A stretch of DNA of 64,000 nucleotides from an uncultured Gammaproteobacteria bacterium (GTDB lineage Bacteria; Patescibacteriota; Patescibacteriia; Magasanikbacterales; GWA2-37-8): NCBI GenBank assembly GCA_964407865.1, contig CAYOXC010000001.1:331978-395977 (forward strand). Direction: 5' to 3'. Below the pieces are notes generated by a model, which was not told the origin of the DNA, searched no databases, and saw only the letters and a list, made by a program, of their open reading frames with translations. A program made the position numbers and the translations under genes. Positions 5,837-6,111 of the stretch are shown here, piece after piece (within the stretch, counting starts at the first letter, position 1; every line of letters starts with the position of its first letter).

Positions 5837-6111
5837 TGGGTGGGCTAGGATTCGAACCTAGGAAGGCTGAGCCAGCAGATTTCATTAATCCAAAAGTTTC
5901 CTTTTGGCATGGACTATATCTTTACCCACGAAGGGTACTTTGGTATCTAGTCTCTACGGCGCCCCGATTTAAAATCGGGTTCCCACGGTATTGGCATATT
6001 CAACATATGAACTTAGCTTTCACCGTTATCCCAAAGAGTTCATCTTTAGGTTACCCTAAAGAGCTGCAATTTTTTACAGTCTGCCCCAGTTGACCGCTTT
6101 GGTACCCACCC
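5837..6111 (-). tRNA. trnY: tRNA-Tyr (anticodon GTA) interrupted by a group I intron in the anticodon loop
   Basis: Exons assemble to GGGTGGGTACCAAAGCGGTCAACTGGGGCAGACTGT|AAATCTGCTGGCTCAGCCTTCCTAGGTTCGAATCCTAGCCCACCCA, a class II (long variable arm) tRNA-Tyr. Confidence 0.8.
5883..6075 (-). ncRNA. group I intron (about 193 nt) inserted after U35 of tRNA-Tyr
   Basis: 5' exon ends in U, intron ends in G; IGS GCAG pairs with exon CUGU (P1 with U.G); conserved P7 halves GACTA/TAGTC inside the elements CGTAGAGACTAGA and AAGATATAGTCC. Confidence 0.75.

Follow-up and report, generated by a model that had tools for sequence, protein, structure and literature searches.

Can a tRNA gene that is split inside its own anticodon still supply a tRNA, and what is the insert that splits it? 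The question is raised by the window, by which the whole analysed stretch of 64,000 nucleotides (nt) of contig CAYOXC010000001.1 is meant here, since its minus strand carries, from 5837 to 6111, the two halves of a class II tRNA-Tyr(GUA) separated by 193 nt. The evidence gathered below points, with a probability of about 0.9, to a functional tRNA-Tyr gene interrupted by a compact group I ribozyme that contains no open reading frame (ORF) and splices itself out of the transcript.

The interrupted gene and its insert

The default ARAGORN run over the window reports five tRNAs, tRNA-Tyr not among them; a tRNA-Tyr(gta) with a 193-nt intron is recovered once the program allows introns, and the construct with joined exons gives an 82-nt class II cloverleaf with the anticodon GUA. 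This bears out the first-pass annotation, a reading of the sequence alone that had placed an insert of about 193 nt after U35 of such a tRNA. The 5' exon ends in ...GGGGCAGACUGU, and the 3' exon begins with AAAUCUGC and ends with GGUUCGAAUCCUAGCCCACCCA, CCA not being encoded. The GUA anticodon, the long variable arm and the T loop GGUUCGAAUCC are those of a bacterial class II tRNA-Tyr, and the joined exons, in which the loop CUGUAAA is restored, align colinearly with tRNA-Tyr genes of Patescibacteria that have no insert, the identity reaching 85% (85% to L070; handles of this kind denote our loci).

The insert, which starts with AAAAAAUUGCAG and ends in ...UUAAUG, had been called a group I intron in the same annotation, and the search with the Rfam model RF00028 (Intron_gpI) agrees: the match at 5890-6086 of the minus strand covers the full model (1-253) with 71.9 bits, against a gathering score of 50 bits, and has an E value of 1.7e-18 in a 391-nt search and of 9.8e-18 when 2.2 kb are searched. 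Rfam scans of the whole window, in both gathering and E-value modes, missed the intron despite the 71.9 bits obtained in searches of up to 2.2 kb, presumably owing to speed filters and not to its absence. The minimum free energy fold of the intron has a z score of -3.09, and none of 200 shuffles folds as well.

The details proposed at first sight for the boundaries and the core also hold. The exon ends in U (U35) and the intron in G (G5883), both invariant in the homologues; the internal guide GCAG, 8 nt into the intron (6067-6064, intron nt 9-12), pairs in the Rfam alignment with exon CUGU, including the U35.G wobble pair at the 5' splice site; and the P7 halves GACUA/UAGUC are present, with an additional G-C pair beyond the bulged A. 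The conserved motifs CGUAGAGACUAGA and AAGAUAUAGUCC both lie in the intron. The first three intron nucleotides (AAA) are identical to the first three of the second exon, so that a shift of the splice sites by 1-3 nt would leave the product unchanged; the site is nevertheless fixed at 35/36 because there are homologues whose introns start with G or C, and by the rule of a U before and a terminal G at the end of the intron. With regard to the subgroup, the stretch from the end of the P3 3' strand to P8 is only 2 nt long, which leaves no P7.1 or P7.2 of the kind typical of IA1 and IA2 introns, and both L2 (in the 15 of 16 aligned sequences that were checked) and L9 (16/16) are GNRA loops, a layout that resembles a minimal IC3 intron. 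The boundaries CUGU/...G/AAAUC (slashes mark the splice sites), together with homology to a published member, assign the insert to the Patescibacteria tRNA-Tyr(GUA) 35/36 intron type.

Family-profile nhmmer, the motif pattern and ARAGORN in intron mode found no further introns of this family in the window. Two other intron-mode predictions of ARAGORN were discarded as ghosts, namely a tRNA-Tyr at c[6742,6903] with a 68-nt intron, which overlaps a normal tRNA-Thr, and a tRNA-Ser at c[56288,56681], which overlaps a normal tRNA-Leu gene.

Features of the tRNA-Tyr locus; positions refer to the window, except where a locus is named
Feature	Positions	Strand	Basis
tRNA-Tyr(GUA) 5' exon, 36 nt: acceptor 5' strand, D arm, anticodon stem 5' strand, C32 U33 G34 U35	6076..6111	-	ARAGORN intron mode and spliced construct; colinearity with intron-less tRNA-Tyr of Patescibacteria
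Group I intron, 193 nt, without ORF, between U35 and A36	5883..6075	-	RF00028; family-profile nhmmer E 4.9e-59; covariation
P1: exon C32-U35 (6079-6076) and intron AA (6075-6074) against UUGCAG (6069-6064)	6064..6079	-	Rfam alignment
P2 hairpin, 8 bp, GNRA loop GUAA (6054-6051)	6043..6062	-	8/8 pairs compensatory, 100% of cells pair
P3 5' strand CUUUGG, partner 5943-5938	6031..6036	-	3/6 pairs compensatory, 100% of cells pair
P4-P6 domain	5958..6026	-	Rfam alignment, covariation; P4 nearly invariant, P5a and P6a covary
P4	6026-6021/5990-5985	-	
P5	6017-6016/5995-5994	-	
P5a hairpin	6012-5998	-	
P6	5984-5983/5959-5958	-	
P6a hairpin	5979-5963	-	
P7 5' strand G-(bulged A)-GACUA, partner 5916-5911, guanosine-binding helix	5948..5954	-	invariant 16/16; in RF00028 core motif AGACUA
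P3 3' strand CCAAAG, closes the P3/P7 pseudoknot	5938..5943	-	covariation analysis
P8 hairpin UACCC-UUCGU-GGGUA	5923..5937	-	4/5 pairs compensatory
J8/7 AAGAUA (5922-5917) and P7 3' strand UAGUCC (5916-5911)	5911..5922	-	invariant AAGAUAUAGUCC, fits RF00028 consensus
P9 hairpin, 7 bp, GAAA tetraloop	5890..5907	-	6/7 pairs compensatory
Terminal (omega) G, 3' splice site	5883	-	invariant directly before AAAUC in all homologues
tRNA-Tyr 3' exon, 46 nt: A36 A37 A38, anticodon stem 3' strand, long variable arm, T arm, acceptor 3' strand, discriminator A	5837..5882	-	sequence, ARAGORN, colinearity
Decayed copy of a gene for a protein of ~202 amino acids with helix-turn-helix (HTH) and LAGLIDADG fold, neighbour outside the intron	6116..6672	-	homology to intact copies
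Intact homologue, L014	3697-4305	+	
Intact homologue, L005	3744-4373	+	
Intact homologue, L018	394-1038	-	
Further intact homologues, L020-L025 and L026-L105			

Homologous introns and covariation

The pattern AGATATAGTC..AAATCYGC..GTTCRAATC, scanned over 185,579 species-representative (GTDB) genomes, returned 16 loci, 15 of which are tRNA-Tyr(GUA) genes split at the identical site by introns whose lengths range from 185 to 239 nt and whose identity to that of the window is 60-84%. A Tyr intron at the same site occurs in another 43 metagenome loci, and all the placeable carriers among these 15 genomes and 43 loci are Patescibacteria-like.

In a MAFFT alignment of 16 sequences, in which 60 pairs were assessed against controls with partners slid by 1-3 columns and against 500 shuffles, 94.4% of the paired cells can pair, versus 34-46% with slid partners; compensatory (double) changes affect 34 of the 60 pairs, and no shuffle reaches any of the measures (0/500). 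The first intron pair of P1 is A-U, G-C, C-G or G.U depending on the homologue; the P2 loop conforms to G-N-R-A in the sequences checked, the alignment placing a 5-nt insertion of the Doudnabacteria sequence there; and the P9 loop is GAAA in 15/16 sequences and GUAA in one. P4, P7, J8/7, the four exon pairs of P1 including U35.G (16/16) and the terminal G are invariant across the alignment, and P7 and J8/7 are therefore neither backed nor contradicted by covariation.

The same homologues bear on the opposite strand, where the ORF 5836-6093 (+) could be taken to encode an 85-amino-acid protein, the RNA features being coincidental. The antisense frame stays open in the window, as it does in L005, L011, L014, L015 and L016 among the homologues. 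Nevertheless, it has no Pfam match and is broken in most of the homologues, whose length differences are non-multiples of three located in hairpin loops, the substitutions compensate base pairs, and RF00028 is matched with an E value of 1.7e-18; the protein-coding interpretation is thus effectively refuted, and the frame is an artefact, as the first-pass annotation had held.

Some other observations were made on these relatives. The 16th locus of the pattern scan is a classic tRNA-Leu(UAA) 34/35 intron (L013, ~4834-5119, plus strand) in a metagenome-assembled genome (MAG) of Candidatus Pullichristensenella, and the only match on a viral contig (IMG/VR; L106, 1619-1909, minus strand) is likewise a tRNA-Leu(UAA) 34/35 intron and not a Tyr one, although it has the core motifs of the Tyr family and scores 75.6 bits against the Tyr profile, a hint that tRNA introns of phages and Patescibacteria draw on a common stock of cores. 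A search of phages gave one weak partial match to the intron core, at 167927-168008 of LR745208.1, an uncultured 485-kb phage (77% identity over 84 nt, intron nt ~119-202), which may be a further group I intron of a tRNA. At L076 (2120-2537, plus strand), a tRNA-Tyr intron of the same family is itself split by an insertion of ~190 nt (profile positions ~124 and ~117-217).

In every intron-bearing tRNA-Tyr, G30-A31 precede CUGU (xxxGA/CUGU), the rest of the anticodon stem being variable (L026-L105), and at tRNA-Tyr genes that adjoin this protein gene but lack the intron, CA, AA, GU and GC occur at positions 30-31 as well; the fixed G30-A31 may reflect a constraint from P1 or from recognition of the intron.

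Regarding the hosts, the window, which matches Logan assemblies of SRR14492170-2, has a GC content of 38% and the gene order M16 peptidase, TIM, TPR protein, tRNA-Thr, tRNA-Tyr, L33, tRNA-Trp, which recurs, with 36-58% protein identity, in MAGs named Magasanikbacteria, Parcubacteria, Amesbacteria or 'Patescibacteria group'. The window accordingly derives from an ultra-small bacterium of the Patescibacteria (CPR). Six of the contigs (L005, L006, L012, L014, L018 and L019) are titled 'uncultured Gammaproteobacteria bacterium' in GenBank; four of them (L005, L012, L014 and L018) show the order TIM, TPR, tRNA-Thr, (LAGLIDADG gene), intron-bearing tRNA-Tyr of the Magasanikbacteria/Patescibacteria MAGs, three also with L33, while the resemblance is limited to the TPR gene in L019 and to the LAGLIDADG-type gene plus the intron in L006. 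Between L005 and the Magasanikbacteria locus L015, the 5' exons do not differ at all and the 3' exons hardly do. The Gammaproteobacteria labels of these six contigs are probably wrong. A scan for promoters and terminators around the tRNA-Tyr locus of the window gave 7 sites, not above the chance expectation of 4.2 +/- 2.0.

In three loci (L004, 6061-6323, minus; L020, 3413-3673, plus; L025, 2994-3246, plus), tRNA-Tyr has another interrupted tRNA just downstream, for which ARAGORN proposes either Arg(gcg), the intron being at 35, or Thr(ggt), the intron being at 37. This tRNA fits the 'divergent' tRNA-Thr(GGU) 36/37 introns of Nakagawa et al. (2026), RF00028 giving only 26.9 bits in L004, where a paralogue of the LAGLIDADG-fold protein (30% identical; 6913-6350, minus) is located directly upstream of it. 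The tRNA-Thr(GGU) of the window (6830-6903) is uninterrupted.

Splicing and the upstream LAGLIDADG-fold gene

In the proposed pathway, the intron within the transcript would fold into a P1-P9 core, in which the guide GCAG pairs with exon C32-U35 and sets U35.G at the 5' splice site; an external guanosine held in P7 would attack this site after U35, the terminal G (5883) would then occupy the P7 pocket, and the 3'-OH of U35 would attack the 3' splice site. U35 would thereby be ligated to A36, restoring the anticodon G34-U35-A36 at the junction GACUGU/AAAUCUGC, i.e. ...GGGGCAGACUGU/AAAUCUGCUGG... No P10 is conserved, the base before GCAG pairing with intron nt 1 and not with A36, and the anticodon stem of the tRNA may align the 3' exon for the second step. 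We infer catalysis, which would need no protein, from published 35/36 introns, those in the Asn and Asp tRNAs, which self-splice precisely in vitro and whose exons are no longer ligated once the terminal G is changed to C (Nakagawa et al. 2026, PMC13011429). Judging from the sequences, the shared 35/36 site matches the common four-nucleotide P1 target C32-U33-G34-U35 of tRNAs with GUN anticodons.

Several points weigh against this account. Splicing has been demonstrated for Asn and Asp introns only, and its extension to the Tyr introns is indirect; both splice-tested introns are only distant relatives, with 15-25 bits against the Tyr family profile; P1 comprises only four exon pairs plus one or two intron pairs; P10 is weak or absent, so that exon alignment would probably depend on the anticodon stem; and, with 64 kb of the genome visible, a further tRNA-Tyr copy may exist. 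The last point, together with the decay of the adjacent protein gene, which indicates that the locus tolerates decay, would suit a dead tRNA-Tyr copy, either a pseudogene or a gene with a splicing-dead intron, backed by an intact second gene elsewhere. However, no element of the catalytic core and neither of the two splice-site nucleotides is damaged or departs from the family consensus, the compensatory changes keep the helices and thus imply selection on the fold, the exons give a normal cloverleaf, and intron-bearing and intron-less copies of one anticodon rarely occur together in a genome (PMC13011429), so that a dead copy is scarcely credible.

The gene upstream bears on whether a protein might assist the self-splicing favoured here. 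The spacer between tRNA-Thr(UGU) and tRNA-Tyr, ~18-30 nt long in L004 and L015, measures 630 nt in the window and contains three broken ORFs, which are pieces of one gene that is intact in L005, L014 and L018; the window copy is damaged by an in-frame TAA (6540-6538) and by an 18-codon gap with a frameshift near 6355-6358. The protein family comprises at least 489 clusters (E <= 1e-3), mostly unannotated, the few named ones being mainly 'hypothetical protein'. Sequence searches of Pfam, NCBIfam and PDB recognised the N-terminal HTH only, the core having no match and no curated LAGLIDADG family being hit; nevertheless, the core has the alpha-beta-beta-alpha-beta-beta-alpha arrangement of the LAGLIDADG fold. 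The motif MLY[YW][GA]EGxK lies in it, the first core helix (75-91) ending at E91-G92; of 30 sequences, 29 have E as the acidic residue and one has D, and this residue is kept beside intron-bearing and intron-less tRNA-Tyr alike. By alignment to the GDG of I-CreI, we take E91 to be the putative catalytic residue. The scores of the nucleases are equalled by WhiA, which derives from LAGLIDADG proteins but is no nuclease, and the fold alone therefore does not decide whether the protein is a nuclease.

The distribution of the gene is more informative about its role. A tRNA-Tyr(GUA) lies directly downstream in all five sampled members and in 75/75 metagenome loci that extend far enough downstream, the intron being present in 43 of these and absent from 32; the identity to the intact homologue P0001 is 44-79% at intron loci and 42-57% at intron-less loci, and the gene is missing from 8 of the 15 intron-bearing genome loci. 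Since it is intact beside the 32 intron-less genes too, the protein is tied to the tRNA-Tyr gene and not to the intron.

These data concern the possibility of a real intron that needs a helper in vivo, with the HTH and LAGLIDADG-fold protein as its maturase. LAGLIDADG maturases are an established class, some of which serve fungal mitochondrial group I introns, and in many genomes the gene sits 4-40 nt upstream of an intron-bearing tRNA-Tyr. However, it is a pseudogene in the window, absent from the 8/15 loci and equally intact at the 32 intron-less ones, and related 35/36 introns splice protein-free in vitro (PMC13011429). A maturase requirement is accordingly very unlikely; the absence of the gene from 8/15 intron loci and its decay in the window mean that its product cannot be an obligatory cofactor. 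The simple form of an intron-specific maturase was rejected on the intact, putatively catalytic E at the 32 intron-less loci and the 8/15 gene-less ones, and a 'collaborative homing' endonuclease that targets the empty 35/36 site was discarded on the same loci.

Two roles come into consideration for the protein, that of a free-standing homing endonuclease acting on the Thr-Tyr locus and that of a DNA-binding protein which, like WhiA, has been domesticated. In the former case, the ORF-less Tyr intron might itself be mobile: the endonuclease would cut Thr-Tyr loci lacking the gene, repair from a gene-bearing donor would co-convert the intron 40-80 nt away, and the decayed copy and the gene-less intron loci would represent late stages. 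Separately, a single intron lineage may move among Tyr, Asn and Asp tRNAs through the shared P1 target C32-U33-G34-U35. The endonuclease scheme is unlikely; if true, it would counter the conclusion of the survey by Nakagawa et al. (PMC13011429), in which only intron-encoded endonucleases were counted, that introns without an internal endonuclease gene are immobile. A search of the literature found no paper describing an HTH and LAGLIDADG-fold gene beside tRNA-Tyr; the linkage is apparently unreported, and this gene family, the less expected item of the locus, may merit separate study.

Relation to known tRNA introns and neighbouring nucleases

The first-pass annotation had considered the intron as uncommon and perhaps new, and the latter view cannot be maintained. 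The survey of tRNA group I introns in Patescibacteria already cited (Nakagawa et al. 2026, mSystems, PMC13011429; preprint July 2025) gives 35/36 as the characteristic site of the group, since of the 28 introns at this site in 4,934 complete genomes 19 belonged to Patescibacteria, and includes in its Table 1 and Table S3 a Tyr(GUA) 35/36 intron of Doudnabacteria GCA_016699995.1; a tRNA-Tyr 35/36 intron is thus not new in kind. In that survey, 25 of the 28 introns at 35/36 are classed as IA, and none of the Patescibacteria ones as IC. An earlier preprint (Williams 2020, bioRxiv 10.1101/2020.01.27.920355) had raised the bacterial tRNA intron types from 4 to 21.

What the present data add to the single published Tyr case is its recurrence in dozens of further loci from genomes and metagenomes, the window being one more well-supported member. 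They also have a practical side: default ARAGORN and whole-contig Rfam scans miss an essential tRNA gene, such genomes seem to be without tRNA-Tyr, and estimates of their completeness are impaired, as PMC13011429 had already pointed out; contig-scale Rfam annotation will overlook introns of the type in the window.

The Doudnabacteria intron, a table entry that was neither described nor splice-tested, shares with that of the window the host tRNA, the site CUGU/AAAUC, the guide GCAG, the lack of an ORF and the size (192 versus 193 nt); with 75% identity and a score of 162 bits against the family profile it is a close relative, but it comes from another class of Patescibacteria and differs in the hairpin sequences of P2, P5a, P6a and P8. 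The published Asn and Asp 35/36 introns also follow C32-U33-G34-U35 and use the guide GCAG, although the host tRNA differs; those of GCA_030583765.1 (Asn) and GCA_023898525.1 (Asp) are 75-78% identical to the window intron (116-122 bits), and because they are equally close, one intron lineage occupies the CUGU/N site of Tyr, Asn and Asp tRNAs. The two splice-tested 35/36 introns are more distant and, in addition to their low scores, have extra sequence between P3 and P8.

The classic tRNA introns, such as those of Anabaena/Nostoc tRNA-Leu(UAA) at 34/35 and of Azoarcus tRNA-Ile, both IC3, resemble the window intron in their size of ~200 nt, the lack of an ORF, the location in the anticodon loop, the GNRA-capped P2 and P9 and the lack of P5abc, and the core motifs GUAGAGACUAGA and AAGAUAUAGUCC are common to the window intron and the tRNA-Leu(UAA) introns L013 and L106. 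Nevertheless, the site is 35/36 and not 34/35, 33/34 or 36/37, the host tRNA is another one, and the similarity of the Nostoc PCC 7120 intron to the Tyr family is weak (8 bits).

As for the neighbouring gene, a free-standing homing endonuclease beside an intron-bearing gene is known from the 'collaborative homing' at cyanophage psbA. Another counterpart is SegB in the tRNA cluster of T4 (PMC2330249), likewise free-standing. As in these cases, the neighbour is a nuclease-fold gene that lies outside the intron and directly abuts a highly conserved RNA gene; some genomes carry it, others lack it, and in the window it has decayed. It differs from SegB in combining a LAGLIDADG fold with an N-terminal HTH instead of being of the GIY-YIG type, and it also stands beside intron-less tRNA-Tyr, so that the intron is not a required protective partner.

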